Virus record (IMG/VR): IMGVR_UViG_3300027791_000007 | Coordinates: 64,001-128,000 of that record | DNA from: a virus | Length of the DNA stretch: 64,000 bases | Reading direction: 5' to 3' (one strand) | Part shown: piece by piece, positions 1,476 to 52,223 of the stretch | Position numbering within the stretch: position 1 is the first letter of the stretch | How the letters are laid out: every line of letters begins with the position of its first letter | The notes under the pieces: generated by a model | The model's database searches: none | What the model was told of the DNA's origin: nothing | Seen by the model: the letters and a program-made list of their open reading frames with translations, nothing else | Position numbers and translations under genes: made by a program

Positions 1476-2535
1476 AAGTTTCTTTTCTTCTGGCGGTCAA
1501 GTTTTTTTGTGTACCACACTGTGAATAACATTGTCTTATATTATTTTTTGGGTCATTACTCCATAGTAATTCTATATAATCTCCTTGTTTTTTATATTCA
1601 TTTATTATCTCATCCCAATCATATTTTCTTAAATCTATTTTCATGTTTTTTAAAATTTGTACATGTTTAGCTTTATGCCCAACATGGTTTGGATTGTATT
1701 TAGATGCAAATTGATAATTACCCCACCAACAACAAGGTAAAACATCTCCATCACATGATACAAATAATTCCTCTTTTTTTTGTGATTGGCACAATATTCC
1801 AGATCCAGATGCATCCCAAGTTGATTCTGTCCATTTCTTTAATTCATTATTTTGTGGAACATAACTTGGTGTTCCACCAAATTTATCTAACATTTGTTGT
1901 TGAATCTTTTTTACTGGTGGTACTCTTGGTTCTCTTATTATACCATCTTCTAAAACGGTACGATTATTTCTTCTAAGTTCAAATTTTTTAAACCCCATCT
2001 TTTTTGCAAGTTCTCTTGCCTCATCTATTTGATGTTCGTTATGTTGAAATGCTATAAATACCCACTCTGCTCTACCACCATTATCTATAAATGTTTGTGC
2101 ATTTTTAATAATCGCATCAAAATTAGTATTTCTTCTATATAAATGATTTGTATCTCTCAACCCATCTATACTAAATCTTACATGACTCTTTCTTCTTGTC
2201 ATGGTTTTTGCAAGTTTTGTCCACCACTCTGTATTTCGCAAAGAACCATTTGTTACGACATGTATCTTACATTCAAATTGTTCTATGTATTCTACTATAT
2301 CTATGAGTTTGGGATGAATTGCTGGATCACCATAATTACCACAAAAATTAACACGCTCCATAGTTTCCCAAGGGATCTTTTTAAGAGTCTCTAATTGCAA
2401 ATCTATCCAACCAGAGTTCTCTATAAATTCTGTAACACCACTAGGTCTACTAGATGTTCTTCCACAAAGAGGACATCCAGCATTACACCTATTAGTAAGT
2501 TCTATATGAAGTTTTTTAATATCACTTTTTATCAT
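1471..2535 (-). CDS. Radical SAM protein with C-terminal SPASM/twitch-like Cys cluster
   Basis: CNAGCPLC (CxxxCxxC), GNYGDP, TNGS, FSIDG, C-terminal C...GDVLPCC...CxxxC. Confidence 0.9.
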   Translation of the reverse strand: MIKSDIKKLHIELTNRCNAGCPLCGRTSSRPSGVTEFIENSGWIDLQLETLKKIPWETMERVNFCGNYGDPAIHPKLIDIVEYIEQFECKIHVVTNGSLRNTEWWTKLAKTMTRRKSHVRFSIDGLRDTNHLYRRNTNFDAIIKNAQTFIDNGGRAEWVFIAFQHNEHQIDEARELAKKMGFKKFELRRNNRTVLEDGIIREPRVPPVKKIQQQMLDKFGGTPSYVPQNNELKKWTESTWDASGSGILCQSQKKEELFVSCDGDVLPCCWWGNYQFASKYNPNHVGHKAKHVQILKNMKIDLRKYDWDEIINEYKKQGDYIELLWSNDPKNNIRQCYSQCGTQKNLTARRKETL

Positions 2536-3607
2536 TCTCTAAACCATAATCGCTTCTATTCATTATCATATACATTTTTTCTGCAAGTAAATTACCGACA
2601 ACATAATCTTGTAAATAATGAAATCCAGCTAAAACTCTACCATATCCACATTCTTTTGCAGCTTCAATGATACCTTTTCTATGTTCTGGAAATTTATTAG
2701 ATATATACAATGCAACTAACATAGATTGTGTTGCATGTCCACTAGGATAACTCTTAGTTTTATTAGTTGTACTTGCCATTGGTTTAATTTCGTTATCATG
2801 ATCAAAAGGTCTTTTTAAGTCAAAAATTTCTTTAAAATATTTGATTGTTGGTCTTGCCTGCTGAACTATATCTATCATCTCATTTTCGTGAAATGACATA
2901 CCGTGTTCAAGTAAATATTGCTCAATCGCATAATAAGTCTGTTCATCATGGTTAGCAATAGACTCTTCATCTTTGTCTGTTCTTTTTGCCATAAGGGATT
3001 TTAATTTTAATACTTCCTCATCCAGATCAGTGTTGGGTTCTGGTAATGTTATTTGAAGGTGTAAGTCTTTTGGAAAAAACTCCATTGCTTCATTAAAACT
3101 TTCAAACTTTAACTTAGGCCCAGAGGTTTTAAAATCTTTCTTTCTCATTACTGTCTTTGCAACAAGTTCTAACTCTCCACCCTTTAGGTTTAATACAAAC
3201 GGCATATTGATATCAGTTTTCATATCATTGATAACTGCTTCTGCATCAGGCCCTAGTTGTGCGATAGTCTTACCAAATTTCTTGTGTGACTGTTTGAATA
3301 GTCTAGTAAGTTCTGCTGGTGTGATTTGTTTATTGTTTCTCGCATCATTTACTCTGTCTAAGAAATGTCGTGTAAACTCTACGTCAATACCAAGAGATGC
3401 AAATATTCTATCTGCATACTTCTCTATTTGATCTAAATCGGATTTCTTTAATGGTTTTTCTGATTGTGCATTTAAATTAATGATTGGAACATAGGTATCT
3501 AACCCAGGCCCAAGGCTACCATCTTTATAAGATACACCAGACAAAGACTCTTTAATATGTGTTCTAAAATCACGAGGCATTGTAAATCCTCTACTGTTAC
3601 TTTGCAA
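2522..3607 (-). CDS. Two-domain protein: N-terminal 'FTRHFLDR' module plus C-terminal PAP2-family phosphatase (probable start ATG 3580)
   Basis: All three PAP2 motifs present: K-x6-RP (KEIFDLKRP), YPSGH, R-x5-H-x3-D (RVLAGFHYLQD). Confidence 0.75.
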   Translation of the reverse strand: MQSNSRGFTMPRDFRTHIKESLSGVSYKDGSLGPGLDTYVPIINLNAQSEKPLKKSDLDQIEKYADRIFASLGIDVEFTRHFLDRVNDARNNKQITPAELTRLFKQSHKKFGKTIAQLGPDAEAVINDMKTDINMPFVLNLKGGELELVAKTVMRKKDFKTSGPKLKFESFNEAMEFFPKDLHLQITLPEPNTDLDEEVLKLKSLMAKRTDKDEESIANHDEQTYYAIEQYLLEHGMSFHENEMIDIVQQARPTIKYFKEIFDLKRPFDHDNEIKPMASTTNKTKSYPSGHATQSMLVALYISNKFPEHRKGIIEAAKECGYGRVLAGFHYLQDYVVGNLLAEKMYMIMNRSDYGLENDKK

Positions 3608-4103
3608 CTTTAAAAGCGATATTTTGTAGTTTCAGAAAATCACCTTTCTTACCGTTCATCATAGGTTTTAACTTTGCTTTATTAACATCATTAACCTTAT
3701 CATAAACTTGTGTAATTACGGATGCTGTCATCAAGTCGCATTTCATAGTTCCATCTTTGAACTTTAAATTTTTAGCCTGTTTACTCTTTACGATTGATCT
3801 CATCACATCAAGATTTTCTTCTGCAAGAAGAGACTCGATACCAAACTCTTGAACACTTGCAATAACACTACTTTGAAAAGAACCCTCTCTCATGGATTTC
3901 TTTTCTCTTTTCATTTGCAATTGTTTTGCATGAGCTCTATATGCTTTTGTTCTTGCATCTAAAAGACTTTTCTTTTTCTTTTTCTTCATCATAGCATCAG
4001 GCGGCATAGCAACTCCACCAGCAGCATTACTGTTAGTTGGAGCATCTTCTTCTATGTTGTTGCCTGTGTATGGATCTACTTCTGTATATATTTTATTTGG
4101 CAT
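3597..4103 (-). CDS. Hypothetical, probable prohead core/internal protein
   Basis: Charged; IEE/LAEE sites resembling gp21 cleavage motifs; in late-gene block. Confidence 0.5.
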   Translation of the reverse strand: MPNKIYTEVDPYTGNNIEEDAPTNSNAAGGVAMPPDAMMKKKKKKSLLDARTKAYRAHAKQLQMKREKKSMREGSFQSSVIASVQEFGIESLLAEENLDVMRSIVKSKQAKNLKFKDGTMKCDLMTASVITQVYDKVNDVNKAKLKPMMNGKKGDFLKLQNIAFKVAK

Positions 4104-4710
4104 TTTTAATATCCTCTACACTTACATATATTTTTTCTTGGGTTCTAATATGAATAACTGGAAATATCTCAACACCCAAAACTGTATCAATAGGTGGTTC
4201 GTCATCATATGTGATAACCTTATCACCTTTTTTAGCAGTTAATTCTTCTTCTTCTTTATTTAGTATATCGTTGATTAGCACATATTCACCTTTGGGTAAA
4301 ACCTCACCAAAACCGGCAATCTCTTCTGAAATTGTATCGTCCAACTGTATTTCGTTCTCATGTAAAAATTTGATAAACTCTTTTTCAAACATATCTTTAT
4401 CATCAACAGATTCTTTGAATGTATCTTTTAGTAGAAACAACGCTGCAGCATATGTACCAACCTTACTTCTAAGTCCAGGCACTTTGTTAAAAATCTTTTT
4501 GATGTTGAATACAAGTTTGTGTAGAATAGTATATGCATTTTTTTCTTGTGATGAAACCAAGGGAACTTGTGGTTTCTTTGCTTTATCTTGCATAATACGA
4601 TTGCCCTTTTCGTCAATGATACCCAACTTATAAGCATCAGTGTCCTCAAAGGGTGTTGTTAGTAACCGTAAAAATCTATACGTTACAAATAGGTCTATCG
4701 CTCTTCCCAT
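4093..4710 (-). CDS. Conserved T4-like marine phage hypothetical protein
   Basis: N-terminus YRFLRLLTTPFEDTDAYKLGIIDEKG recognisable from T4-like phages; translationally coupled to neighbours. Confidence 0.65.
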   Translation of the reverse strand: MGRAIDLFVTYRFLRLLTTPFEDTDAYKLGIIDEKGNRIMQDKAKKPQVPLVSSQEKNAYTILHKLVFNIKKIFNKVPGLRSKVGTYAAALFLLKDTFKESVDDKDMFEKEFIKFLHENEIQLDDTISEEIAGFGEVLPKGEYVLINDILNKEEEELTAKKGDKVITYDDEPPIDTVLGVEIFPVIHIRTQEKIYVSVEDIKNAK

Positions 4711-5072
4711 TATAGTTCCTCTAGTTTTTCTAGAACAAAAGAATCTGTTTCTATAATCTTTAGTTCATCTTCTCTAATTATATTTAGGTAAATACAAAAC
4801 GCCTTTAGTGCAGATAAGTGTTCGTGTTGTATTTTGTGTATAAGAAGAGTTGCACAGGCTTCTGGGCCAAATACATTTGATAAGACTATAATGTGATTGA
4901 TTAGTAGACGTTCTTTTAAAATACCACTTTCATAGTATTTTCTTAGAAGCCTTTTAATATATTTAAATCTTTTCAGATCGTCTTGAAATTCTTTTTCACC
5001 TTCGCAATGTGGGTTGTTGTAATGCCTTATGGCATACATCATTACATTTTCAGGCGTTATCTTTTCATACAT
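4710..5072 (-). CDS. Conserved T4-like marine phage hypothetical protein
   Basis: YNNPHC...EFQDDLKRFKYIKRLL...LKERLLINHII motif typical of cyanophage/pelagiphage core hypotheticals. Confidence 0.7.
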   Translation of the reverse strand: MYEKITPENVMMYAIRHYNNPHCEGEKEFQDDLKRFKYIKRLLRKYYESGILKERLLINHIIVLSNVFGPEACATLLIHKIQHEHLSALKAFCIYLNIIREDELKIIETDSFVLEKLEEL

Positions 5073-5075
5073 GTA

Positions 5076-5507
5076 CTATACAATGGAAGCGTATAGTTTA
5101 CATGAATTATTTCTTCCTACCATTTCATAATCCACTTTCAACTTCAATCCACCCTCTACCATGTGAGAAATCCCATCATCGTCTAAAAACTCATCAAATG
5201 GTGTATTCTCATCTTTACCAAATCTTCCACCCATCTTATTAAGTTGAAGTTCAAATGAACCACTCTGTTCACTCATACTTGGTGTTGCTTCCATACCAAG
5301 ACCAACAGCTGCTAATCTATTTCTTAAAGTATTAAGAGCGTGTTCTGGTAAAATAAATTCTTGATTTCCTATCAGTCCAACAAATGCATTAAGTCTTTTT
5401 ACGACTTCTGGATTTCCTAGTTCGGCAGGATTAATATCTAAATCCACAGCAACATTATGGTGCATATTATTGTGAACTTCTTTTATGTGTTGTTTAAAAC
5501 TTTTCAT
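5076..5507 (-). CDS. Hypothetical with capsid-targeting-like N-terminus (MKSFKQHIKE)
   Basis: ORF track; N-terminus resembles T4 internal-protein CTS MKTYQEFIAE. Confidence 0.6.
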   Translation of the reverse strand: MKSFKQHIKEVHNNMHHNVAVDLDINPAELGNPEVVKRLNAFVGLIGNQEFILPEHALNTLRNRLAAVGLGMEATPSMSEQSGSFELQLNKMGGRFGKDENTPFDEFLDDDGISHMVEGGLKLKVDYEMVGRNNSCKLYASIV

Positions 5508-5635
5508 GAGTTACAACCTTCGCAGTTACAGTTATCATCACATTGTCCTTTACAAGCACACGAACTATCGCACCCACAAGGATTAGGAGTTTCATCTGAA
5601 CCATCGTATATTTCTTTCAACTCTTTTCGTTCCAT
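5504..5635 (-). CDS. 43-aa Cys-rich metallothionein-like peptide MERKELKEIYDGSDETPNPCGCDSSCACKGQCDDNCNCEGCNS
   Basis: Translated by hand (below ORF-track cutoff); SD AAGGAG upstream; TGA overlaps next ATG (ATGA); 8 Cys in CxC/CxxC patterns. Confidence 0.75.
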   Translation of the reverse strand: MERKELKEIYDGSDETPNPCGCDSSCACKGQCDDNCNCEGCNS

Positions 5636-5654
5636 TTTTAACTCCTTTAATAGT

Positions 5655-5687
5655 ATATAGTAGGGGAGCAGAACCCCCCTACTATAT
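5655..5687 (-). terminator. Stem-loop (12-bp inverted repeat ATATAGTAGGGG/CCCCTACTATAT), likely terminator or processing hairpin
   Basis: Perfect inverted repeat between two small ORFs. Confidence 0.6.
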
Positions 5688-5693
5688 TTAATA

Positions 5694-5813
5694 TTACTTC
5701 TTTGCAGCCCTCTTGACTACCTTTTTAACTGCCTGAACTGCTTTAGGAGCAGTTGTACGAGCTACTGGAGGCACCATCATTTTGCCTGCTTTTGACATGA
5801 ATCTTAATCCCAT
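5694..5813 (-). CDS. 39-aa basic Lys/Ala/Val-rich peptide MGLRFMSKAGKMMVPPVARTTAPKAVQAVKKVVKRAAKK
   Basis: Translated by hand; SD AAGGAGA upstream; flanked by hairpins. Confidence 0.7.
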   Translation of the reverse strand: MGLRFMSKAGKMMVPPVARTTAPKAVQAVKKVVKRAAKK

Positions 5814-5841
5814 TGTAATCTCCTTTATCTAATATGGGAAA

Positions 5842-5861
5842 TGGGGAGGCGAACCCCCCCA
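5842..5861 (-). terminator. G/C-rich hairpin with UUCG loop
   Basis: Minus strand TGGGGGGG-TTCG-CCTCCCCA just after stop of 5872-6345; weak U tail. Confidence 0.55.
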
Positions 5862-5871
5862 AATCTAATTA

Positions 5872-6345
5872 TTAGTTAGCGATATCAACAAGTCCACTAT
5901 CAGCACCAGCATCATGCTGTCCGATAACGGCCCATGAAGAACCAGTCCACATTAGTATAACAGCATCACCGTCATCAACAAAGTTGATGTCTGCATAACC
6001 CAATGGGTCAGCAGGTGTACATACAGATGTACCACCATCAGTGTCGTTAATGATAACTTTCAACTGACCTACGATAGTTCCATCAGCAATAGTAGTAGCG
6101 TTAGAACCAGCAGTCTGAAGCAAAGTAACAGCAGTTGTTACAGACAATGCAGCCTGTGTACCATCAGAAATATCTTCTACAGAATTTGAAAATCCGATAA
6201 AAGAAGGAAGGTTGTTAATAAAGTTAGTTACACTAACCTTTTTGTTAATAGGTGTTCCAGTTGGATCATCTACAACGTGTAGCAAGTCTGCGCCTGCGAT
6301 GCCTGTTGAAAGGTCAGTCAGTGCAGTAATTTTCTTATCAGCCAT
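5872..6345 (-). CDS. Probable virion structural (fibre/decoration-like) protein
   Basis: MADKKITALT N-terminus common in phage fibre proteins; T/G/D/A-rich; strong SD. Confidence 0.55.
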   Translation of the reverse strand: MADKKITALTDLSTGIAGADLLHVVDDPTGTPINKKVSVTNFINNLPSFIGFSNSVEDISDGTQAALSVTTAVTLLQTAGSNATTIADGTIVGQLKVIINDTDGGTSVCTPADPLGYADINFVDDGDAVILMWTGSSWAVIGQHDAGADSGLVDIAN

Positions 6346-6435
6346 TTTTATTCTCCTTAAATAGCGTTATTAAATACCTAGACAATTCTAGGAATATTAC
6401 TGTAGGTACACACTCGGCGTCCTACATCACCCATG

Positions 6436-6735
6436 TTATTCTTTTTTGGAGACTGTAGATAAATCTTTATCTATCGACTCTTGACTAACATCAATTATAT
6501 AACCGTCTAGAAGATCTTGGGTTACTTGTTTTGCACCAGTAAGTGCATTTATCAACCCAACATATTCTAATCTCTTCTTGTCATGCAAATCTAGTTGGGA
6601 TTTAACCTTTTCTAAATCTGCATCTAGTACCGTATCCTTTTGCAACAACTTGTTAAACAATGCAGCTGCTTTGGTGCCAGGCACTAGTACAATTTCTTCT
6701 CGTTCAGTGTTATCCACTCTCTGTTTCATTACCAT
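6436..6735 (-). CDS. Hypothetical coiled-coil protein
   Basis: ORF track; late promoter at 6763-6770. Confidence 0.6.
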   Translation of the reverse strand: MVMKQRVDNTEREEIVLVPGTKAAALFNKLLQKDTVLDADLEKVKSQLDLHDKKRLEYVGLINALTGAKQVTQDLLDGYIIDVSQESIDKDLSTVSKKE

Positions 6736-6762
6736 ATTATATTCACCTTTAATTTATAATAT

Positions 6763-6770
6763 TATTTATA
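6763..6770 (-). promoter_or_regulatory. T4-type late promoter TATAAATA
   Basis: Exact consensus, intergenic. Confidence 0.7.
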
Positions 6771-6798
6771 AGACTTTTTGGCCCTATTTTTTCACTTA

Positions 6799-7989
6799 TT
6801 ATGTAGTAGTAACTCCGTTTAGGATAGAACCAGTTCCACTTGTAGAACCTACTTGTGAGTGTAATACAATATCAGAAGTCTTATCTTCTGCAAGTATAGC
6901 ATCAAACTCATCAGCACTTGAACCGTTTGTAGCATCAAAGATGATTGTACCACTAGTATCTCTACCTTCTGTACCATCTTCAAGCAATCCAATTTTGACA
7001 GCAGTATCTTCACCAGTTCTTGTAATACCAGTAATATCTGTAGTTCCACTATCTCCTTGAACAACTAAGTCTAATCCCTCATCACACAAACTGTCGTGTC
7101 CATCAGCAGAGAAGTTTAGAACTATGTCGTTTGCAACTGTAACTGGTCTTGAAAGTGTGACACTTGTTGAACCATTTGTTGCAGTAACAGTTAATGAACC
7201 ATCTTGTGATAAGTCAGTTGAACCATTTTCGTCTGTCAATGGTGTTGCATTTGCCTGTCCGTAAACTTTCATACCTACTGCAATTGTACCAGAGTTACCA
7301 TCTAGAACCAAAGCAGTTGTTGCTGTTGTAATTGCACCATTTACCGTTCCAACAATAGCAGCAACGGAGTCAAGAACAATTCTACCAGCAGGAACAGCGT
7401 CAGTACCACCTTCTTGTCTTATTGCAAGGATAGATGTTCCATCTTCTTCTGTAGCATCAGCAGAACCGTTGAAAACGATTGCTTTTGTGTTAAATCCAAT
7501 AAAACCAGCAGCGGCCGCTTGTAGTGAACCTCTGAATGTAATTTGGTTTGTTCCAGAACCAGAGAGATATTGGGCAGCAATTGTGTTGTCCTCTACCATG
7601 TCTGTCGCACCAAGTCTATTTAATAGAATGTATGCTTTGTTTGTTACTGTTTGGTTCGCTGTTACAGCGGCACTTGTCATGTCTACTGCTTCATCGAATG
7701 TTAGTGTTATATCAAATGTTGCACTATCGGCATATATACCGTCTGTCCAATCAATTGAGCGTACCGTAGCCGAACCAGCAATTGCCGCAAGGTTTCTAAT
7801 GCATACTAGGATTTCTGGTTGAGCATCTTTATTGTCGTTACCAGAAGCCGCAAGGCCAGAGGCAAGCGCCCATCCACCACTTGTTGCAATGGCGTTTTGT
7901 CTCGAACCCATTGATCCAGAAGCATTATCGTCCTCAGGCAAGAATTTTGGTCGGTTAGCTGAACTTGTATTTGATCCCCATAAACCCAT
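6799..7989 (-). CDS. Probable virion structural/decoration protein
   Basis: MGLWG...RPK N-terminus seen in T4-like marine virion proteins; T/G/A/S-rich beta-type sequence; late promoter upstream. Confidence 0.6.
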   Translation of the reverse strand: MGLWGSNTSSANRPKFLPEDDNASGSMGSRQNAIATSGGWALASGLAASGNDNKDAQPEILVCIRNLAAIAGSATVRSIDWTDGIYADSATFDITLTFDEAVDMTSAAVTANQTVTNKAYILLNRLGATDMVEDNTIAAQYLSGSGTNQITFRGSLQAAAAGFIGFNTKAIVFNGSADATEEDGTSILAIRQEGGTDAVPAGRIVLDSVAAIVGTVNGAITTATTALVLDGNSGTIAVGMKVYGQANATPLTDENGSTDLSQDGSLTVTATNGSTSVTLSRPVTVANDIVLNFSADGHDSLCDEGLDLVVQGDSGTTDITGITRTGEDTAVKIGLLEDGTEGRDTSGTIIFDATNGSSADEFDAILAEDKTSDIVLHSQVGSTSGTGSILNGVTTT

Positions 7990-8024
7990 TTTAATCTCCT
8001 TTAGATCTTTAATCTATTTCCTTT

Positions 8025-8032
8025 TATTTATA
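8025..8032 (-). promoter_or_regulatory. T4-type late promoter TATAAATA
   Basis: Exact consensus upstream of 6799-7989. Confidence 0.75.
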
Positions 8033-8033
8033 A

Positions 8034-8546
8034 TTATCTATATCCCAAAGACTTCAATCTTGTAATAGTTTTATTGACATTCGTGTGATGAACCCCAATT
8101 CCACCTCTTTGTTCCCATTCCTTAATGTTCTTTATGTAATCATCAACTAAAACGGATGGTTTCCCATCAATTGTGGCATATGCCTGTTTCTGATCTCTTT
8201 GTACCAAATGAATATTACCTCGTTTAACATTCGTATTTTTGGCCAACCATTTCATCTTACCTGGCCTAGAATTTGAATCCTTCTTTGAAAAAGCAGAAAG
8301 AATATGTGCATCATATTTAGCAATAAATTGCCATAACTTTTTAGAACCAGGCATCCATTCTAACTCTGCCCAGAAACCTTTAGTATCACTAATCTTCTGC
8401 CATCGTTCTCCCTTATCAGCAGTAACAAATGAACCCCCAGCAGCTTTATCAGCACCAGCCATAAAGTTACATAGAACTTGATCCATGTCACAATATATAA
8501 TAGGCAAATCTTCTTTTGCCGTCATTAACTCCGAAAGAGTTTTCAT
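8034..8546 (-). CDS. HAD-superfamily 5'(3')-deoxyribonucleotidase-like protein
   Basis: IYCDMDQVL (motif I DxD), ILSA (II), K (III), LVDD..KNI.EW (IV). Confidence 0.8.
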   Translation of the reverse strand: MKTLSELMTAKEDLPIIYCDMDQVLCNFMAGADKAAGGSFVTADKGERWQKISDTKGFWAELEWMPGSKKLWQFIAKYDAHILSAFSKKDSNSRPGKMKWLAKNTNVKRGNIHLVQRDQKQAYATIDGKPSVLVDDYIKNIKEWEQRGGIGVHHTNVNKTITRLKSLGYR

Positions 8547-8549
8547 ACT

Positions 8550-9074
8550 TTAATCCTTTATTTTAGGATCAATTTCAACCTTTGCAGCTGGTTCACCAGT
8601 TGCGGCTTTTGAACCTTTTGCAAAATCTTTTTTCTCTTTCATCTTCTTTTTGTTCTCATCTTCAAAAGGATTCTTACCCTCTTGTCCACTCCAAACTTTC
8701 TTTAGAGCTTCCCTCATAGATAATGACTTACCATTCATTGCAGAGAGTTGTTCTTCAACTTCTTTTTTAGATTTTTCATCTACACCAAGTGGAGCCTTTT
8801 TTTCTTCTACTGGTTTAGCAGAGGAAAACGACCACTCTTTAAGTTTACCAATTAGTTGATTAACTGCTTCAGATTTCTCACCAGTGTAGTTCTTATCAAT
8901 ATAATCAAAAAACTTTTTCTTTGCTTTATCATCTTTTAATTCAGCAGGCGATTTAATATTAAACTTTTTCAATGCACCGTTAAAGAATTTTTGGTACTCT
9001 GCTTTAGTTCCGTCTGTTAGACTAGCCTTAATCGCCTCTTCAAGACTACCCTCTTTTTTATCAAAATATGCCAT
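8550..9074 (-). CDS. Highly charged hypothetical, probable prohead core/internal protein
   Basis: K/E-rich with SLEE, LKE, MKE sites. Confidence 0.55.
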   Translation of the reverse strand: MAYFDKKEGSLEEAIKASLTDGTKAEYQKFFNGALKKFNIKSPAELKDDKAKKKFFDYIDKNYTGEKSEAVNQLIGKLKEWSFSSAKPVEEKKAPLGVDEKSKKEVEEQLSAMNGKSLSMREALKKVWSGQEGKNPFEDENKKKMKEKKDFAKGSKAATGEPAAKVEIDPKIKD

Positions 9075-9083
9075 TTTAGTCTC

Positions 9084-10433
9084 CTACTTTTTTAGCGCAT
9101 TAAGCAAGTCTTTGTATGACTTCGCTATTTGGTTTGAAAATTTTGCTTTGTCGATTGATGTTCGTATTGATGCAAATTTGTTCAGTGCTGCTTGTGCAAT
9201 CTTATCGTTAACCTTGACTTTTTTATTATCATTGAACTTGACATCTTTTAGTCCTCTTAGACTAACTGATTTTCTAAGTTGCATAAGAATATTATTATCA
9301 GCGGTTTTAATATCATCGTCTGTAGCAAAATCATCAATATCAGCAGGGTCGACTTTTCGTGCCTCTACTGTTTCTTCTTCTTCTTTAAGTTGCGACTTAT
9401 CTACTTTATCACCAATACTCTGTGCAGTCTTTAATCTTGCAATTTTAAGTGGTGAAACATCTTTTAACCTTTTCTCTAAAGAACCTCTTTCTATCTTCAA
9501 ATCTTTTTCATCACTATCTATTGCATAGATTTTCATATCTGTACCAACAAGAGCATATGTTATTTTTGGTGCTTCATCTAAATCTAATTCAGGCCTGTAG
9601 GGTTCAACGATTCTAGAAGCGTTACCTTCTGGAATAACTCTTAGTTTACCAGCAATGTATAGTGGATGCATCTTCATTGCTTTTTGTGCATCTTCCTCAT
9701 CATTACTGTCTACTTTAACTACGAACTTTCCACCTTTAGTGTCTAACTTGTATGCAATATTACCCATTGCATCGTCTACATCAATAGCGATGTTCTTCAT
9801 TTTACCTTCTTTGACATATGCCAACAGTTCTTCATTTTGTCTCCTCAAAACAGCTGCAACTTGTGTCTGTTTTGATAAACCTTTTTTAATTTTTTCTATT
9901 GCATTTACAGCGCCAGTCATGTTTCCTTGTTTATATCTAGGATCGGATGCGACTCCAATTGCCATTTTTACCTCTTTCGGTGTGTAGTTCTCATCAAGGT
10001 CTAATGTAACACACTCCTCGGCCAATGTCAAGTCTTTTTTTTCATTAATTCCTTCTAATTTGATAGTTTTCATTGATGCAGCCATATCACCAAGTGCTAG
10101 ACTTACATTACCGTCTGGCCTCTTGTATAAGAAGTACTTCATACCACCCTTACCACCATCCTTTTTCAGAGTGATTTTCTCACCCATACCAGCAGAACCC
10201 ATCTTTACTTTGTTTTTAGATGTTACTATGAAAGTACTAGACATGTTTTGTGCAACAGACGAGTCGTAACCAATTGTAACTTTTTGTTTTGATTTTAATT
10301 TATCAAATGCAGTTACAGCATCTTTTTTGATATCTTCGGTTACAGAGTATGCTTTTCTACTAGCAATGGAATCAGCATTGTCCATGACTTTGGCGTAAAG
10401 TTCGTATATATTTGTATATTTGTTCATGGTCAT
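9084..10433 (-). CDS. Modular charged protein, probable internal head protein
   Basis: Repeated (L/V/I)xE sites (VTE, INE, LDE, VKE, LDE, LKE) separating short modules; late promoter at 10447. Confidence 0.55.
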   Translation of the reverse strand: MTMNKYTNIYELYAKVMDNADSIASRKAYSVTEDIKKDAVTAFDKLKSKQKVTIGYDSSVAQNMSSTFIVTSKNKVKMGSAGMGEKITLKKDGGKGGMKYFLYKRPDGNVSLALGDMAASMKTIKLEGINEKKDLTLAEECVTLDLDENYTPKEVKMAIGVASDPRYKQGNMTGAVNAIEKIKKGLSKQTQVAAVLRRQNEELLAYVKEGKMKNIAIDVDDAMGNIAYKLDTKGGKFVVKVDSNDEEDAQKAMKMHPLYIAGKLRVIPEGNASRIVEPYRPELDLDEAPKITYALVGTDMKIYAIDSDEKDLKIERGSLEKRLKDVSPLKIARLKTAQSIGDKVDKSQLKEEEETVEARKVDPADIDDFATDDDIKTADNNILMQLRKSVSLRGLKDVKFNDNKKVKVNDKIAQAALNKFASIRTSIDKAKFSNQIAKSYKDLLNALKK

Positions 10434-10446
10434 TCCTTTATAGTAT

Positions 10447-10454
10447 TATTTATA
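10447..10454 (-). promoter_or_regulatory. T4-type late promoter TATAAATA
   Basis: Exact consensus, intergenic. Confidence 0.75.
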
Positions 10455-10457
10455 AAA

Positions 10458-12149
10458 TTAAGCGCCTGCTCCGTGTACAGTTTTTAAAGTAGTTCCACCA
10501 GAGTTCTTAATCAATAGTGTGGATAGTGTTTTTAGTTGTGTTGAACCAATAGCATCGTCTGCCATCATTGTCTCTGTCACACTGTCATCCGTAATTCCTA
10601 TTGCGATTTGATTATTTGTCACTGTCGTAGTAATACCATCTCCACCAGCAAAGTTCAATGTGTCTGTTCCTACAGCAACAGCATCATCACTACCACTGTC
10701 GGCACCAACTGTTAGTGTACTGGATATATTAGCAGTTGTCATTGATGTAATCAAACCTTGACTATTAAATGTAACCACTGGAATTGAAGTAGTTGAACCT
10801 ACAGTTGCACCAGTAACAATATCTGCAAGGACATTATTTCTTGTGAAATCTTCTTGAAGTATACTTTGACCTTCATCAGAACCAGAAGTATTTGTAGCAT
10901 CGAGAATAACTTCATCTCCACTATCATCTTCTAATGCGATACCATCATTTAAATCATCATCAACATGGATGTACTTCTTTGCAAAATCATCATAACGAAG
11001 CATTGCACCGTGGAATCTAGAACCAGCATCTATATCGTCCAAACCAAATAGTTTGATTTCTCCACCACCACCACCAGAGATTTCTCCTTGTGCAGTAGCT
11101 TTTGCATTTTCAGTAATAATTGGTGAAAGATTTTTAATAGTCTGTCCAAACATTTCCTTAAACTTGGAAAGGTCGGCACGTACTTTTTCTACTTCTGTTC
11201 TTTCGTCTATGACTTCTGGATCATTCTTATCATAAGCAACTGTATCAAGTTGTCTAAGAACATCATCAACATAGTTTTGAGCATCGTCAATCTTACTTGT
11301 AAATACTGTCTTATTATCTTTATATGCCTGTATAACTGGATTGAGTTTCTCGTTCTCCATCCTTTCAACTTGTGCTTGATGCATGTCAGCAATTCTTGAT
11401 TTCTTTTCATCAATTGCTGATTGTCTATCTTTTTCAAGTGCTTTCATCTCTTTCTTATAAACTTGTGAATTAACATCACCTCTCTTTAAGGCTTCATATA
11501 ATTCTTTTCTTTTCTCTAAATTTATGAATGTATCAGCATCTTCTTGGAATTGGGAAGTTACCGATTGTTTACCTAGTTTTCTAGTTGGTTGTATGGGTTG
11601 AATTGGTGTAATTGGTTTTACAGATTCACTAACAACTTTCTTATGAATAATTGGTTTTTTCTTTTCTTCGACAATCGGTTCAGGCTTAACACTTACCTTA
11701 ATATCATCGGCATTAAACCCAATCTTACTATTCTCTTTTAAACCAAAAGCCCTTGCAACGGATGCTGATGGTTTTTTAATTTCTTTTATTTCTTCTGTGA
11801 CTTGTTCTTTCTTTACTTTAAAATCAGTTATGTTACCAAAAATACTAACTAGTTCTTGTAAACTCTCTTTTGCTTTTTCAATAGAAGGTTTTACTTCTTC
11901 AAGACTTCTAACCTCTTCTTCAAGATGTTTCTGACCTTTGTTATTAAAACTATCAACTGAAATAATAGATGTTTTCATATCCTCATTAATGAAATTCATC
12001 TTCTCTTCTATTCTTTTTTCTTCAGCAAGTTGGGCTTCAATCTTTGCCTCTAAAACCTTTGTCTGTTTAGATTTCTTATCTTTACGAACCTCATCTATGG
12101 ATAAACCAGCGAGTTTTCGTAATTTTTGTTTTGGTTTTAAATCATCCAT
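10458..12149 (-). CDS. Hypothetical structural protein: charged coiled-coil N-half, fibre-like T/G/D-rich C-half
   Basis: Composition switch after GGGGG linker; LDDID and LED repeats. Confidence 0.55.
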   Translation of the reverse strand: MDDLKPKQKLRKLAGLSIDEVRKDKKSKQTKVLEAKIEAQLAEEKRIEEKMNFINEDMKTSIISVDSFNNKGQKHLEEEVRSLEEVKPSIEKAKESLQELVSIFGNITDFKVKKEQVTEEIKEIKKPSASVARAFGLKENSKIGFNADDIKVSVKPEPIVEEKKKPIIHKKVVSESVKPITPIQPIQPTRKLGKQSVTSQFQEDADTFINLEKRKELYEALKRGDVNSQVYKKEMKALEKDRQSAIDEKKSRIADMHQAQVERMENEKLNPVIQAYKDNKTVFTSKIDDAQNYVDDVLRQLDTVAYDKNDPEVIDERTEVEKVRADLSKFKEMFGQTIKNLSPIITENAKATAQGEISGGGGGEIKLFGLDDIDAGSRFHGAMLRYDDFAKKYIHVDDDLNDGIALEDDSGDEVILDATNTSGSDEGQSILQEDFTRNNVLADIVTGATVGSTTSIPVVTFNSQGLITSMTTANISSTLTVGADSGSDDAVAVGTDTLNFAGGDGITTTVTNNQIAIGITDDSVTETMMADDAIGSTQLKTLSTLLIKNSGGTTLKTVHGAGA

Positions 12150-12156
12150 ATTCCTA

Positions 12157-14577
12157 TTAACCTTTCATCAAGTCTGTGACGGATTTGGTACTCCAAAACT
12201 TACACGACCAATATCCTGCTGTAGTCTTATCTTTTTTCTGATCGCAATTGTGTCTTGCACGAAAATTCTTTCTCGCTTGTGGGTCATCTCGTTTGATTGA
12301 CATATTTGGGTCACCAAACTCTACCTTCACAACATTGCCCTTATCGTTCTTTACATAAACTTTGTACTTTTTGACATCACCCTTTGTTGGATTATTTAGT
12401 TCTTTGCCTTCAGCATCTTCTGTATATTCACCCCAATCATTCATTTTCTTAAATTCAGTAAATGATGCGGCAAGTTTAGTTATTGCTTTTCTTCTTGAGA
12501 ATTTTGTTTGGCCTGATTTACCCTTTTTGGGGATTAGTAAATTAGGTAATTTTTTGTCTTTCTTTAGAGTTGATTTCTCTTCCATATCTGTTGATTCTGG
12601 TACACAGTTAGGAACTTGTTTTCCACCCTTATTCTTCATACCAACTTGTTTGTAACCATCCCAACATGGGCCTGTATCAGACTTTAATGATTCCTCATCA
12701 AAGTTATCAGCACAATCATCACAACAACCAACCTTTTCTAACATTGATTCCTTGACTTCTTGTAGTTTCCACCACCAATCTTCACCATGTCTTAATTGAT
12801 AGTTTGCACGAACAACTTGACTTTCAAACCACTCATTAACTTGGCCTGGTGTTACTTTCTTAGTATGATCTGCATAGTCTTTACCAATTTCATATGATTC
12901 TGCTTTTTTCTTCTTCTTATATCCACCTTGTGAAATGTCTTTTTGTAAATCTGGGTCTGCTTTACCACCAGTTAACATAGAATTAACTCTTGCAAATGCC
13001 CACTGTTGTGGGGTTGTGCCTGGGCGATGTCCACCTTTCCATGCAGCCAGTCCTCTGTCATATGACTTTTTAAGAATACCATATGGAACACCACTCTGTT
13101 TTGATTTGTTTACAAGTCCTTCAATCTTTTCGTCTAACTGTACTGATTCAGTATATGGGATTTGTTTAAGACCTCGTTCTTTTTCTACTTGTTTATTTGC
13201 TTTGTCAAGTATAGATGATATATCAGAACCATCAAATGCAATAGGTTTTGTTGGGTCACCAGTTATCCACCCCTTTTCCTTTGACTTTTTATCATCTACT
13301 TGGCCTGGATAATGTTTGAAATCTTCTTTTTTATCTCCAAACATCTGTTTAAACTTTTTAGTATACTGTGATGGTTTGGTATCAGCATCTTTATCGCCTG
13401 GAGCATTGTCTCTACTTCCACCTTTTGCAAAATGTCTTGCACGAGCAAGTTTAGTAGATTTTGACATTTCATCTCCTTCGGAATCTTTTGAGTAATACTT
13501 TGCTGGTTGTGTACCCTTTACATCTTTAACATCACCCTTGACTTGTTTTGTCTTTGTAATCTTCTTAGGTTCTTCTCTAAGTCTTGGTTCTCTACGATTA
13601 ACAGATGGGTCTTCCATTTTAAGATTTGATGGGTCATTGTTCATAGGATCATTATCTTTGTGTCCTACGTCCATACCCTTAATTACCTTATCACCCATAA
13701 CTCTGCGAGCCTTGTTCCTAGAAGAACGTCTTGCAATCTGTTCTGGTGTACCTTGATAATTTGCATACTCTTGTTTATAGTTTCTAACTTCTGTTAACCA
13801 TGCCTTATGTACTTTACCAGATGCATCGTTAAATGATATGTAATTAGTTCCTCTTGATATAATTTTACCATCAATACCATTTGCACTAATCATTTCTCCA
13901 ACTAACCAGATTTTTCCAGTAAGATACTTATCTCTTAGAGTTTCATAGTCATCCATGTCACCCATGTCTTTTTCTTCTCTGATACCCATATATTTACGAA
14001 CATCATTGAATAATTTTCTTGCAGTTGTTTCATCAGAAGCAACTCCTTGTTTGAAGATATCAAAACTATTTGCAGTTGCAGCAGCTCTCATCTTAGATGC
14101 CGACATACCCTCAACACCCTCTGCATCTGGATCTCTTTCTCCAGCAGAAATAACTTTGATTTCGTCAAAACCGTAATAACCGTGTTTCTTACCTTCTACA
14201 CCATTGTACTGATTTAGTAGTCTTTCAAACTCTTTTACTCTATCAGAACCAGCAATCATAGTGATTGACTTATATCCTAGTCCATGCAATCTAACAGCAA
14301 TGTCAAATACATTTCTTATTTTTGGATCTGCAACAATATTCTTAGAATGTTTTTTGAATATCTTTCTCATATATGCAATCTTTAGTGCATACGGTAAAGG
14401 GTCTTTAGCAGGACTTTGAGACTGTGAAGCGAAAATAGAATACTCTCTAGAACCAGAAGAGGTCTTTGCAACCTTTAGTATTAGTTTCTCATGCCCAACC
14501 GTTGGTGGATTGAATCTACCGAAAGTAAACGTATGATTAAACTTAGCTTCGTTAAGTATTTGTTTAAATTTTTTCAT
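12157..14577 (-). CDS. Cytidylyltransferase-like (HIGH-type nucleotidyltransferase) multidomain protein with internal HNH-like module and several small modules
   Basis: FTFGRFNPPTVGHEKL, AGSDRV, GERDPD, MSASKMR; later DVGHKD..N..NL...S.NR (HNH-like); GPCWDGYKQVGMK..VPNCVP; C-terminal FRARHNC..AGYWSC. Confidence 0.8.
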   Translation of the reverse strand: MKKFKQILNEAKFNHTFTFGRFNPPTVGHEKLILKVAKTSSGSREYSIFASQSQSPAKDPLPYALKIAYMRKIFKKHSKNIVADPKIRNVFDIAVRLHGLGYKSITMIAGSDRVKEFERLLNQYNGVEGKKHGYYGFDEIKVISAGERDPDAEGVEGMSASKMRAAATANSFDIFKQGVASDETTARKLFNDVRKYMGIREEKDMGDMDDYETLRDKYLTGKIWLVGEMISANGIDGKIISRGTNYISFNDASGKVHKAWLTEVRNYKQEYANYQGTPEQIARRSSRNKARRVMGDKVIKGMDVGHKDNDPMNNDPSNLKMEDPSVNRREPRLREEPKKITKTKQVKGDVKDVKGTQPAKYYSKDSEGDEMSKSTKLARARHFAKGGSRDNAPGDKDADTKPSQYTKKFKQMFGDKKEDFKHYPGQVDDKKSKEKGWITGDPTKPIAFDGSDISSILDKANKQVEKERGLKQIPYTESVQLDEKIEGLVNKSKQSGVPYGILKKSYDRGLAAWKGGHRPGTTPQQWAFARVNSMLTGGKADPDLQKDISQGGYKKKKKAESYEIGKDYADHTKKVTPGQVNEWFESQVVRANYQLRHGEDWWWKLQEVKESMLEKVGCCDDCADNFDEESLKSDTGPCWDGYKQVGMKNKGGKQVPNCVPESTDMEEKSTLKKDKKLPNLLIPKKGKSGQTKFSRRKAITKLAASFTEFKKMNDWGEYTEDAEGKELNNPTKGDVKKYKVYVKNDKGNVVKVEFGDPNMSIKRDDPQARKNFRARHNCDQKKDKTTAGYWSCKFWSTKSVTDLMKG

Positions 14578-15821
14578 TTATCCCATGCCTTTATAGCGGT
14601 AAAGTTGTTAAACGAGAACTCCATTCTGTCCACTAATTTAACTGCATTTCCACTAACTCTATCAATAGCAACATAACCTTCTGGGTTAGTTACTTTAAAT
14701 CCATTACTAGTCTTAATAAAGGTATTTGTTAATCCCTTTACACTATTTAGTTTATTCACAATTTCTGCTTTAGCATCAACTAGATAGTTCTGAAACTCTA
14801 GAGTTAAGGTTAATACGTTTGTAAATTTCTTGACTTCTCGTACATATTCTTTTTGCAAATTCTTGTATTTTTCTTTACCAGCAACCGACTTTACTTTATC
14901 AATATTCTTCTGCAATGCCATCTCTACATGTTTTGCATATCCTATAGCATGTTGTCTGGGGTTAGATATTGTCTCTCCAGCCCTAACTTTAGTATTATTA
15001 TATGTTTTTAATCCAGCACTAGCAAGTTGTCCAGTAAACAACTCTTGTAGTTTTAAAAACGATTTCAACTGGTTTGAATTAATCTTTTGAAAAGTCTTTC
15101 CAGTTTGTGACAGTAGAGCAGTTACTTTTTCTGTCTCTTTTGAATTAAATGTCGCACTTCCAGACACATCCTTATAGGTTGCATCATCCATCCACACAGA
15201 GGACGGTTTATTTAAACTTGATATGTTCGCACCAAATGATGCTTTCATTGATTGTAAATCACTTCCAGTATAAGTTGTATGCCAAACTACACCGATTTTT
15301 GATTTGTTTATTGTATTTCCTATGTCACTATCCACTGGTACTGCATATACAATAGTATTAGGCTGAAAAGTATAACACTTTTCGCCACCAATTGTTGTGG
15401 TGTCAACATCATCGGTGAACATGAGGTCTCCTTGAAGAACTCCTTTGATACCCAATTTAGAAAATTCTGTAAATGCAATCTTAAACTTAGAATTAAGAGC
15501 TCCAGATAATTTATCATCATCTATCTCCTTTATTGATTTGTATAGTTTTGGTTCAGCATTAAATACAGACTTCTTTGCAACAAAGAACTTATTATCAGAA
15601 GGGTCGATGCCAGAAAAGATTGCAGGCGCACCATCCCACTTAACAGTCATTGAAATAGATGAACGAGAGTTACCAGCAAGCATATCTCTTAATGAACGTA
15701 GGAAGTTAATTGCAGCTCTACCACCGTCAACTCCGTAGTTGAGAATTTCATCCTCTAGATGTTCTAGGTGTAAATTCTTACCACCCTTATCTTCTGTAAG
15801 TAGTTGATTAAATGTTTTCAT
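14574..15821 (-). CDS. Conserved T4-like protein (DUF6267-like) with ATP-dependent ligase-type motifs
   Basis: KNLHLEHLED N-terminus; TVKWDGAP (KxDG), LQGDLMF, PEGYVA, VKLVDR. Confidence 0.7.
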   Translation of the reverse strand: MKTFNQLLTEDKGGKNLHLEHLEDEILNYGVDGGRAAINFLRSLRDMLAGNSRSSISMTVKWDGAPAIFSGIDPSDNKFFVAKKSVFNAEPKLYKSIKEIDDDKLSGALNSKFKIAFTEFSKLGIKGVLQGDLMFTDDVDTTTIGGEKCYTFQPNTIVYAVPVDSDIGNTINKSKIGVVWHTTYTGSDLQSMKASFGANISSLNKPSSVWMDDATYKDVSGSATFNSKETEKVTALLSQTGKTFQKINSNQLKSFLKLQELFTGQLASAGLKTYNNTKVRAGETISNPRQHAIGYAKHVEMALQKNIDKVKSVAGKEKYKNLQKEYVREVKKFTNVLTLTLEFQNYLVDAKAEIVNKLNSVKGLTNTFIKTSNGFKVTNPEGYVAIDRVSGNAVKLVDRMEFSFNNFTAIKAWDK

Positions 15822-17332: not shown

Positions 17333-17340
17333 TATTTATA
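17333..17340 (-). promoter_or_regulatory. T4-type late promoter TATAAATA
   Basis: Exact consensus heading the 17313-10458 gene run. Confidence 0.75.
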
Positions 17341-21589: not shown

Positions 21590-21618
21590 ATCCTATCATA
21601 ATTAGCGTTGTTTGTCAA
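21590..21618 (-). promoter_or_regulatory. Sigma70-type promoter TTGACA-17-TAGGAT (with extended TG)
   Basis: Consensus -35 and 17-nt spacer upstream of MazG-like gene/uvsX. Confidence 0.6.
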
Positions 21619-25819: not shown

Positions 25820-25851
25820 ATTTTTTCTTTCTCTTGATTGTTTATACTAAT

Positions 25852-25880: not shown

Positions 25881-25953
25881 GTAGGGCAAAAATCTCCAGT
25901 AAAAACAAAGACTTAAATTTAACGTAAAATTTGTGTTTTAGCACAACTGCGAA

Positions 25954-51578: not shown

Positions 51579-52223
51579 TTACAACATTTTGAGGAACTTA
51601 GCAAATTCTAATGCTTGATTTGCAGCTTTCCCCTTCTCAAGTCTTTGTTTCATCTCCACCAAATGTGGTTCAAGATAACTTCCATTATCCCACACCCACT
51701 CTTTTCCTTCCATGATACCTTCCACGAAAGCGGATGGAGCCGATGGATCAGCAACGATATCAGCCGCAGTTGCGAGCATGAAATCTTTGTTTACATAGTT
51801 TGCACCACCTTTTGATACTAAACTACCCATACCTCTTGATGAAACACCTAATGTAGCACCCTCATCCATAAGACTTTTTACAATCTTACCCATAGGGGTG
51901 TCCATTATTTTTGCCTCTCCGATAAAATTTTTACCTTCGGGCACTAATGATGTTATCAAATGAGATGCTCTTTCGAGATTTACAGTCGGCCCTTCTGGGT
52001 GACCTAATTCTCCAAAAGCTCTCTTTTTCGCTATGAAGTTTTTATTATACTTACCTACTTCATTAGTCAATACTTCCATAGGATAAACACGGCCATTTCG
52101 GTTCTTTATGTCCGCCTGCATGAAAACACCACGAATTTTATAGTTCTTCTTACCATCAGCAGCTTCTTCTGCGATAAAATGAACATCTTGGATATCTTCT
52201 GTAATTAATTTTACTAAGCGCAT
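51579..52223 (-). CDS. gp21: Prohead protease gp21
   Basis: NRNGRVYP, GELGHP, GVSSRGMGS, DIVADPSAP. Confidence 0.97.
   Translation of the reverse strand: MRLVKLITEDIQDVHFIAEEAADGKKNYKIRGVFMQADIKNRNGRVYPMEVLTNEVGKYNKNFIAKKRAFGELGHPEGPTVNLERASHLITSLVPEGKNFIGEAKIMDTPMGKIVKSLMDEGATLGVSSRGMGSLVSKGGANYVNKDFMLATAADIVADPSAPSAFVEGIMEGKEWVWDNGSYLEPHLVEMKQRLEKGKAANQALEFAKFLKML

Follow-up and report, generated by a model that had tools for sequence, protein, structure and literature searches.

Enzymes of an uncultured marine T4-like myophage carry candidate T4-type capsid-targeting leaders

Why do late enzymes of several families in a marine phage start with nearly the same ten residues? The question arises from a 64,000-nucleotide stretch of viral DNA (the window), bases 64001-128000 of the 148,443-bp IMG/VR record IMGVR_UViG_3300027791_000007, which comes from an uncultured marine T4-like myophage of 148 kb and has nearly all its genes on the minus strand. 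An initial annotation of the window had compared seven N-termini with the capsid-targeting sequence (CTS) of the internal proteins of coliphage T4, whose head-loading mechanism is textbook knowledge. We think it likely that the 9-11-residue N-terminal peptides described here are T4-type CTSs, and that the enzymes carrying them are loaded into the head, trimmed and delivered with the DNA. The observations that bear on this are the motif, which is modular and occurs at gene starts more often than chance allows, the prohead protease and scaffold that the phage encodes, and the association of leader proteins with virions in cultured relatives.

Leader peptides at gene starts

All seven N-termini quoted in the initial annotation are present in the sequence. 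Three late-block proteins, the DUF6267 protein, a cytidylyltransferase-like or nicotinamide mononucleotide adenylyltransferase (NMNAT)-like enzyme (the transferase) and a 143-amino-acid (aa) protein, share the pattern M-K-x-F-x-x-x-[LI]-x-E and align position for position with the T4 leaders (Table 1). The RimK-like enzyme and a PAP2 phosphatase fusion have variant leaders, the N-terminus of the 5'-nucleotidase is weak and MERKELKE does not fit, so that the claim of T4-like leaders stands for part of the list. The T4 sequence used for comparison, MKTYQEFIAE, is that of IPII and IPIII, but IPI reads MKTFKEFTST (NC_000866). Judged from these N-termini, the general leader pattern is M, one to three residues, F or Y, two residues of any kind, a hydrophobic residue, L or I, any residue, and E.

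A strict motif, ^MK.[FY]...[ILVM].E, was drawn from T4 and the three best cases, and its count was compared with a null in which each N-terminal column was permuted among genes. The initial annotation had advised scanning the proteome with a motif built from the N-termini, and the strict form exceeds chance at gene starts: it occurs at 3/192, where 0.10 are expected (P=2e-4). A relaxed motif occurs at four gene starts against 0.55 expected (P=0.002, same null), and 10- or 9-residue forms occur at five against 0.97 expected (P=0.0015), the motif in this last case having been shaped after seeing the data.

Could the resemblance be functionless, produced by chance or by the composition of AT-rich gene starts with their Lys-rich second codons? 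MK gene starts are common in this genome (34% G+C). When every ATG, GTG or TTG with a 40-codon open reading frame (ORF) was scanned, shuffled sequences gave two to three chance matches per genome, which shows that the motif is not fully specific and counts against our reading of it. The raw all-start count was not above the shuffles, either in cyanophage S-CREM2 (5 against a mean of 2.85) or in this genome (8 against a mean of 2.05), where four internal or antisense matches accompany four at true gene starts. The raw count is uninformative; the signal sits in the position at true gene starts. However, the permutation null keeps the N-terminal composition, and the strict motif still stands out against it. 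Residues F4, L8 and E10 are kept through synonymous change, all five matches in S-CREM2 (48% G+C) are gene starts and virion proteins, and across four other entire records the strict DNA pattern matched 12 times, a reversed control once. We therefore consider a chance origin very improbable.

The DUF6267 protein matched 402 entries among phage records. The best was Methylophilales phage Melnitz, at 71% identity, and phage C48C1, Pelagibacter phage HTVC008M and then several hundred T4-like cyanophages came next; by this protein, Melnitz is the closest cultured relative. To keep the motif search from biasing the set, the leaders of DUF6267 homologues were gathered by core homology. In 25 homologues, the most distant at 32% identity, M1, F4 and E10 never vary, and L8 is present in at least 90%. 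Among 22 distinct leaders the information peaks at positions 1, 4, 8 (L or I) and 10, with 4.06 bits at F4, and position 7 is hydrophobic (L, I, Y or M). Asp was found at position 10 in 0/33 distinct coding sequences. Codons are mixed at the invariant residues (F4, TTT 23 and TTC 9; L8, five codons; E10, GAA 24 and GAG 9), and selection therefore acts on the peptide rather than on an RNA element. Amber-suppressor mutagenesis of the T4 IPIII leader (Mullaney & Black 1996), as given in PMC9026906, attributes targeting chiefly to residues 4 and 7, and processing to 8 and 10. In our alignments the conserved leader positions, 4, 7, 8 and 10, coincide exactly with this functional map.

The leader is also separable from the protein that it precedes. 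The Pfam DUF6267 model (E=2.7e-103) begins at residue 16 of the protein in the window, and in its AlphaFold model (mean predicted local distance difference test score, pLDDT, 78) residues 1-19 have pLDDT <50 and the fold begins at about residue 20. The DUF6267 homologues of S-CRM01 and S-SZBM1 start straight at the conserved core with no leader, as do the short transferases of P-HM1, P-HM2 and Syn1. In some IMG/VR relatives an extra domain stands ahead of DUF6267 and the leader is retained at the joint (...KLSFESFLAE then DKGGKN...), where it looks as an internal protease site would. The comparisons and the model portray the leader as a detachable module outside the fold.

Homologues of other proteins in Table 1 retain related starts. 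The 143-aa protein, for which no family was found in Pfam or PHROG, has homologues starting MKNFKNHIAE in Melnitz and MKSFKDF in HTVC008M, and further relatives start MKNFSKFITE and MKKFKQVIAE. The RimK-like protein of Melnitz starts (at TTG) TQKFSQFITE then E, the next 160 residues having no BLAST match. Conservation of the RimK leader rests on this single comparison, because tblastn with residues 1-160 as the query matched none of 50,697 phage records. For the PAP2 fusion the start taken is an ATG that has the ribosome site AGAGGA; the longest ORF opens nine codons earlier at a TTG. Its leader fits solely as an 11-residue variant, with the core FRTHIKE against FKQHIKE in the 143-aa protein at a shift of one residue, and the protein also has a degenerate leader-like junction, KLKFESFNE then A. 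A 9-residue form, with an aromatic residue at 4, I or L at 7 and E at 9, was found on two proteins missing from the initial annotation, a 447-aa protein and a P-loop kinase encoded outside the window. Homologues of the former start MTRYNKTMSE then A (Melnitz) and MTRYTKTMAE then A (HTVC008M). The nucleotidase has L at position 4 and lacks (L/I)xE at positions 8-10; its relatives start MKSLKQLTE and MKQLYELRE, and we regard its N-terminus as a weak candidate.

Table 1. Leader-bearing and candidate proteins, head-assembly genes and the late promoter box before the block (positions are those of the window unless marked)
Feature	Position	Strand	Leader or supporting evidence
DUF6267 protein, 415 aa	14574..15821	-	Leader MKTFNQLLTE, codons 15792-15821; strict match
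Cytidylyl/NMNAT-like nucleotidyltransferase, 806 aa	12157..14577	-	Leader MKKFKQILNE (14548-14577); strict match
143-aa protein, no known family	5076..5507	-	Leader MKSFKQHIKE (5478-5507); strict match
RimK-like ATP-grasp enzyme, 490 aa	29834..31306	-	Leader MEKFADFFTE; relaxed match at true gene start; Pfam RimK E=2.8e-35
phrog_23027-type domain + PAP2 phosphatase fusion, 352 aa	2522..3580	-	11-residue variant leader MPRDFRTHIKE
447-aa protein, unknown family	9084..10427	-	9-residue variant leader MNKYTNIYE (Y4, I7, E9)
P-loop kinase, outside window	genome 31747-32409		9-residue form MKSYKELQE
NT5C/HAD 5'-nucleotidase, 170 aa	8034..8546	-	N-terminus MKTLSELMTAKE; 15-residue extension MKTLSELMTAKEDLP ahead of DxD core
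Prohead core serine protease, T4 gp21 type	51579..52223	-	Pfam Peptidase_S77 E=5.8e-33
Capsid assembly scaffold, gp22 type	50228..51526	-	Pfam T4_CASP E=8.9e-65
Major capsid protein	48864..50195	-	Pfam Gp23 E=5.6e-144, model begins at residue 66
T4-type late promoter box TATAAATA	17333..17340	-	39 nucleotides (nt) before the block's first gene (15958-17313), in the gap after the helicase gene

Leaders of the same type are carried by many other proteins in IMG/VR. DNA encoding MKxFxxF[LF]TE was found in at least 122 stretches, and 80 loci with 82 matches were fetched. Among the matches listed, 76/82 lie 35 codons or fewer from an upstream in-frame stop, and 73 sizeable ORFs, taken minus the leader, fall into at least 20 cargo clusters unconnected by BLAST. 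Annotated cargo among them comprises cytidylyltransferases (30), proteins that PHROG calls virion structural proteins (14) and DUF6267 (4). Others in this listed set are a polynucleotide kinase (PNK)-like HAD phosphatase, a CCA-adding or poly(A)-polymerase-type enzyme with an HD domain, a Pol-beta-type nucleotidyltransferase, an S-adenosylmethionine (SAM) methyltransferase, a GNAT acetyltransferase, a DnaJ-domain protein and the phrog_23027 domain; the only ADP-ribosyltransferase-like cargo listed is weak (E=0.0026). A fusion of a zeta-type kinase with an NT5C nucleotidase (IMG/VR locus L123) carries a canonical MKSFDQFLTE. The S77 protease is encoded in 3/5 large leader-bearing records, including 2/2 complete ones, and the two that lack it are 43-56% complete.

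Virion proteomes and head-assembly genes

Are proteins with the leader found in virions? For cyanophage S-CREM2 the strict and relaxed motifs were fixed first and the whole genome (174,876 bp, 4841 candidate starts) was then scanned. There were five matches, all at annotated gene starts: ORF6 (SAM hydrolase), ORF13, ORF14 (kinase), ORF136 and ORF154 (cytidylyltransferase). All five are in the 52-protein virion proteome (PMC10665884 Table 3), compared with 47/214 of the other genes (Fisher p=6.5e-4), although this test rests on five proteins from one phage. Nine neighbouring genes outside the proteome have unrelated N-termini.

Two further proteomes contain both a tagged protein and an adjoining protein with no leader. 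In the protein file of Sullivan 2010 (PMC3037559), 12/17 entries of T4-GC190 start MK[KS]F..F[LI].E then A or T, including those of Syn9 and S-SM1. This putative cytidylyltransferase was detected in S-SM1 virions and is flagged with proteomic data in the gene table of that paper, whereas the adjoining leaderless DUF6267 family, T4-GC71, is not flagged. In S-SZBM1 (PMC9146016 Table 1) the sole enzyme among 30 virion proteins is a cytidylyltransferase that starts MRFRQFIIE then A; the leaderless DUF6267 protein encoded next to it, in the same late operon, is not among the 30. Going by their N-termini, the leader separates detected from undetected neighbours in these two published proteomes. Additionally, NMNAT-like proteins are reported in virions of S-SCSM1, S-CBWM1 and S-SZBM1 and a kinase in those of S-CRM01 (PMC9602691, PMC10665884); the S-CRM01 kinase starts MISFDQFLSE. 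The initial annotation had named virions of related cultured phages as the place to look, and leader proteins are indeed present in those of S-CREM2, S-SM1 and S-SZBM1.

An alternative is that the peptide only keeps late enzymes inactive or stable in the cytoplasm, as a removable propeptide or as a generic N-terminal helix, and that the virion detections are carry-over of abundant late proteins. The virion identifications are of low abundance, and the authors of a proteome themselves raise carry-over. The tagged genes are also linked to late promoter boxes (with the RimK and 143-aa genes as exceptions, having none within 120 nt), which makes it hard to tell an effect of late abundance from one of the tag. 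Against this, the leaderless DUF6267 protein beside a tagged transferase goes undetected in S-SZBM1 and unflagged in the Sullivan table, and other late-box genes of this genome have unrelated N-termini. The conserved positions also include 4 and 7, which the T4 mutagenesis, as reported in the review cited above, ties to targeting and not to cutting. We judge this explanation improbable, and favour the reading of the leader as a head-loading signal.

The machinery that such a signal would need is encoded in the window. The head and tail module is of T4 type, with Gp23, T4_CASP, Peptidase_S77 and the T4 portal all encoded, and profile matches show that the replication set in the window is also of T4 type. 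The S77 prohead protease is presumed, by analogy with T4, to be the enzyme that removes the leader. Its own N-terminus, MRLVKLITE then D, places the Glu of an (L/I)xE at residue 9, as does that of T4 gp21 (MNEPQLLIE then T); T4 gp22 (MLKEQLIAE then A) likewise has L/I-x-E ending at residue 9. A gp22-type scaffold forms the core to which the T4 leaders bind. The major capsid protein has a leader-like site, ...KAFMTE then AAPT, at residues 48-52, ahead of the Pfam core. In T4 gp23 the maturation site, ...GSFLTE then AEIGG (residues 60-66), is the same as the second half of the cyanophage leader MKKFSAFLTE then AE.

The initial annotation had called these genes a late block. The first gene of the block, behind the TATAAATA box in Table 1, is followed by the DUF6267 and transferase genes with no gaps. 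Further minus-strand TATAAATA boxes lie at 10447 (27 nt upstream of the 447-aa gene), 8025 and 6763, and others precede the sheath, protease and scaffold genes. The boxes fit this description for the block and the head and tail genes, but no box was seen within 120 nt upstream of the RimK or 143-aa gene.

Several observations weigh against the leader being a T4-type CTS, or against its use as a rule. Lys2 is not conserved in the DUF6267 relatives (I, L and K all occur), and the capsid site has Met rather than Leu or Ile at the third position before the cut (P3), so the protease rule in this phage may differ slightly from that of T4. T4 gene 61.1 and a Melnitz DNA methylase gene also start with the motif, and neither product is known to be packaged. 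Conversely, nine non-structural S-CREM2 virion proteins (ORF12, 15, 17, 155, 156, 160, 165, 174 and 176) lack a canonical leader. The transferases are of low abundance, with three peptides in S-CREM2 and two in S-SZBM1 (exponentially modified protein abundance index 0.26), one cyanophage proteome paper itself says that non-structural proteins may be carry-over, and the S-SCSM2R proteome of 23 proteins lists no such enzyme, whether this phage encodes a tagged one being unchecked. Finally, the proteomic support comes from S-CREM2, S-SM1 and S-SZBM1, not from this phage, Melnitz or HTVC008M. Taken together with the match to the T4 positions, the S77 protease and scaffold and the virion link, these points leave the proposal that T4-type CTSs load enzymes into the head likely, though two of the seven N-termini originally put forward are weak or do not fit.

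The two exceptional starts are of some interest in themselves. T4 gp61.1 (54 aa, NC_000866 18966-19130) begins MKTFKEFIKE, a near-perfect CTS, and its gene is flanked by genes 41 and 61, in the helicase-to-primase slot where this phage and Melnitz have the leader block; the product may be a relic, or head cargo that has so far gone unrecognised. The Melnitz HhaI-type DNA cytosine methylase (MZ577097 4010-5227) starts MKYFRYTLDE, a strict match, with GTATAAAT upstream; the enzyme may be packaged, or the motif may have given a false positive here.

Searches for homologues of other virion proteins were largely negative. The product of 6799-7989 was rejected as a homologue of the virion protein S-SZBM1_136 (BLASTP E=0.20 over 15 residues), as were those of 9084-10427 and 15958-17313 as homologues of S-SZBM1_139 and S-SZBM1_142, respectively (no BLASTP match). 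When the S-CREM2 virion ORFs were compared with this genome by BLASTP, only ORF154 matched (together with ORF159, which is not a virion protein); ORF6, 12, 13, 14, 15, 136, 137, 155, 156, 160, 165, 174 and 176 had no match. The cyanophage transferases and the S-CREM2 kinase (locus L086, 7580-9847) have a second shared stretch (...A..LGL...G.G.[WY].D..G...) between leader and core, which is absent from the proteins of this window.

Cargo enzymes and the proposed route into the host

The protein encoded by 12157-14577 had been called a nucleotidyltransferase, and this identity is confirmed by PHROG cytidyltransferase profiles (phrog_3041, 4e-71; phrog_395, 7e-66) and by the FTFGRFNPPTVGH signature directly after the leader, where the sequence reads FTFGRFNPPTVGHEKL and meets the (T/H)xGH signature. 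By these sequence criteria it is a HIGH-motif nucleotidyltransferase, cytidylyltransferase-like or NMNAT-like, and it has homologues in S-CREM2 (ORF154, 1.9e-30) and S-CRM01 (g127, 1.6e-37). Its extra modules are DUF5824 (Pfam, residues 489-541) and an HNH-like stretch. Besides the leader there are two conserved (L/I/M)xE motifs, one at residue 201 inside the catalytic core and one at residue 483 in a linker. The latter is L-x-E in 23/26 homologues and lies in an indel-rich linker just before DUF5824; it is possible that this is a protease site that would release the C-terminal modules.

The DUF6267 protein had been described as ligase-like. Residues K61, D63 and G64 (VKWDGAP; KxDG, ligase motif I) are invariant in 25 homologues. 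Compared by sequence with solved structures, neither DUF6267 nor the transferase had a meaningful match. A Foldseek search with the DUF6267 model returned nothing at E<=0.001, and the weak rows were enriched in DNA and RNA ligases. The longest VIA-align alignments are with RNA ligases (Z 5.9-6.9, below the Z 8 line of the tool): REL1 (Z 6.9, root-mean-square deviation 4.2, 192 residues), the nick-sealing RNA ligase 5cot (Z 6.9, 179), T4 Rnl2 (Z 6.6, 164) and tRNA ligase (Z 5.9, 194). The invariant motif and the fold alignments make a ligase-like enzyme plausible, but the fold scores lie below the confidence line.

Assignments of the other proteins come from profile matches. The PAP2 fusion matches PAP2 (E=1.2e-11) and phrog_23027 (3.9e-22, residues 49-159), and the nucleotidase matches NT5C (E=4.2e-6) and phrog_2643 (3.3e-23). 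The phrog_23027-type domain, about 110 residues long (...EKFADRLF..GIDVEFTRHF...), shuffles among cargo proteins: it is found alone behind a canonical leader, before PAP2 (2522-3580), before DUF6267 with the leader at the joint, and inside long transferase homologues. In the first of these settings (IMG/VR locus L130, 2501-2893) the domain of the PAP2 fusion stands behind MKSFQEFLTE (46% identity, E=2e-26). It may be a carrier or core-binding module.

If the T4 analogy holds, the leader would, late in infection, bind the tagged enzyme through positions 4 and 7 to the scaffold core as the prohead assembles. The S77 prohead protease would then cut after the Glu, positions 8 and 10 forming the (L/I)-x-E site, and the mature enzymes would remain in the head amid the DNA and enter the next host with it. 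The cargo would be mostly basic enzymes acting on nucleotides, nucleic acids or proteins: the ligase-like DUF6267 protein, the NMNAT/cytidylyltransferase-like enzyme with its modules, the PAP2 phosphatase fusion, RimK, the P-loop kinase, perhaps the 5'-nucleotidase, and two proteins of unknown family. That the cut falls after the Glu, that the enzymes are ejected together with the DNA and act within the first minutes of infection, and that they serve in counter-defence is all inferred from T4. The families involved make an early part in counter-defence or repair no more than a reasonable guess.

Would these proteins have to leave the head at all? The leader could load them into the prohead for work inside the capsid, such as DNA condensation, charge balance, head assembly or a task at the DNA ends. 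Four of six cargo proteins are basic (isoelectric point, pI, 9.2-9.5), like DNA-binding internal proteins, although the 143-aa protein has a pI of 5.5; T4 internal proteins touch DNA phosphates through lysines, according to a review, and the ejection step is taken wholly from the T4 analogy. However, catalytic motifs are kept, with KxDG invariant in DUF6267 and the PPTVGH core intact in the transferase, and the families are typically host-directed ones (SAM hydrolase, kinases, GNAT, methyltransferase, CCA-adding enzyme). Reviews also state that T4 internal proteins and CTS fusions reach the cell interior. A role confined to the capsid is, we think, unlikely, and the tagged enzymes are probably shipped into the host cell along with the DNA, as in T4.

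Relation to known systems and neighbouring genes

The T4 internal proteins IPI-III are the closest precedent. Head cargo of this type is expected to carry its targeting peptide at the extreme N-terminus, over some 10-19 residues. Their CTS likewise starts at Met1 and has 10 residues, with an aromatic residue at 4, a hydrophobic one at 7, L or I at 8, Glu at 10 and a small residue next (MKTYQEFIAE then A in T4, MKKFKQILNE then A here and MKKFSAFLTE then A in cyanophages), and the protease family and the scaffold are the same, with a late-type promoter before the block. In contrast, the cargo here consists of enzymes of several families, 143-806 aa long, rather than small inhibitor-type internal proteins, and the genes lie between the helicase and primase genes rather than in the T4 ip loci. 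Leaders here have 9-11 residues with Lys2 not conserved, and the system is known here from sequence. The cargo thus appears to work like T4 internal proteins but to fall outside the IPI-III sequence families. T4 Alt is likewise an enzyme, an ADP-ribosyltransferase, which reviews describe as being packed in the head core, where the prohead protease trims it, and as being delivered together with the DNA; it is of a different family from the enzymes here. The ejection proteins of phiKZ and SPN3US, as described in PMC5694885, are also head-internal proteins that include enzymes and have N-terminal propeptides ending in x-x-E, with a homologous protease, but those propeptides are mostly >100 residues long with a small P3 residue (ALE, SLE), unlike the short T4-type tag here.

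A third point of comparison is the 'non-structural' virion proteins of cyanomyophages S-CREM2, S-SM1, S-SZBM1, S-SCSM1, S-CBWM1 and S-CRM01, to which the transferase here is homologous; the virion enzymes of S-CREM2, S-SM1 and S-SZBM1 carry the same leader. The proteome papers, in the text available, report the detections and speculate on function with no mention of a targeting peptide or protease site, and PMC9026906 notes that T-even relatives have other proteins with CTS-like sequences. We found no published extension of the T4 CTS to the virion enzymes of marine T4-like phages in a search that was short on subscription journals, including the S-CRM01, S-PM2 and Syn9 proteomes.

Marine T4-like virions repeatedly hold unexplained enzymes (NMNAT-like transferases, kinases, SAM hydrolase) that their authors have been unsure whether to regard as cargo or contamination. 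A leader that matches the mapped head-loading signal of T4 would offer a simple mechanistic answer. It would also give a sequence rule for predicting which proteins are delivered into SAR11, OM43 and cyanobacterial cells at the onset of infection by viruses that are among the most abundant in the ocean, and would point to candidate counter-defence enzymes. As a natural tag, apparently a very permissive one, it could serve to load foreign proteins into phage heads.

A broader idea can be put forward tentatively, and we lean towards doubting it: that a portable address code of about 10 residues runs from coliphage T4 to the abundant T4-like phages of marine bacteria, and marks an injected kit for the repair or modification of nucleic acids and nucleotides that could reverse or pre-empt abortive infection by the host. 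If this were true, the injected proteome could be read directly from sequence. The kit of this phage would comprise the RNA-ligase-like enzyme, the NMNAT-like transferase, the kinase, the phosphatases and RimK, and that of its relatives would add CCA-adding enzymes, PNK-like phosphatases, methyl- and acetyltransferases and SAM hydrolase. It would work ahead of phage gene expression, countering tRNA cleavage, depletion of NAD+ and nucleotides, and restriction.

Two neighbouring loci are described here for completeness. MERKELKE, which had been listed among the leaders, was rejected as one because it fits no form of the motif. It is the start of a 43-aa Cys-rich peptide (5504-5635, minus strand) with 13 Cys in CxC-type repeats, metallothionein-like, with a strong ribosome site and no leader of its own; the stop of its gene overlaps the start of the leader-bearing 143-aa gene.

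The second locus, at 21615-27066 on the minus strand, encodes a Mom-like protein (E=7.7e-51), an endonuclease VII, a TET-associated glycosyltransferase (TAGT, E=5e-15), two proteins with no known family and a weak DruA-like protein. This run of genes of the DNA-modification type suggests that the phage has hypermodified DNA.

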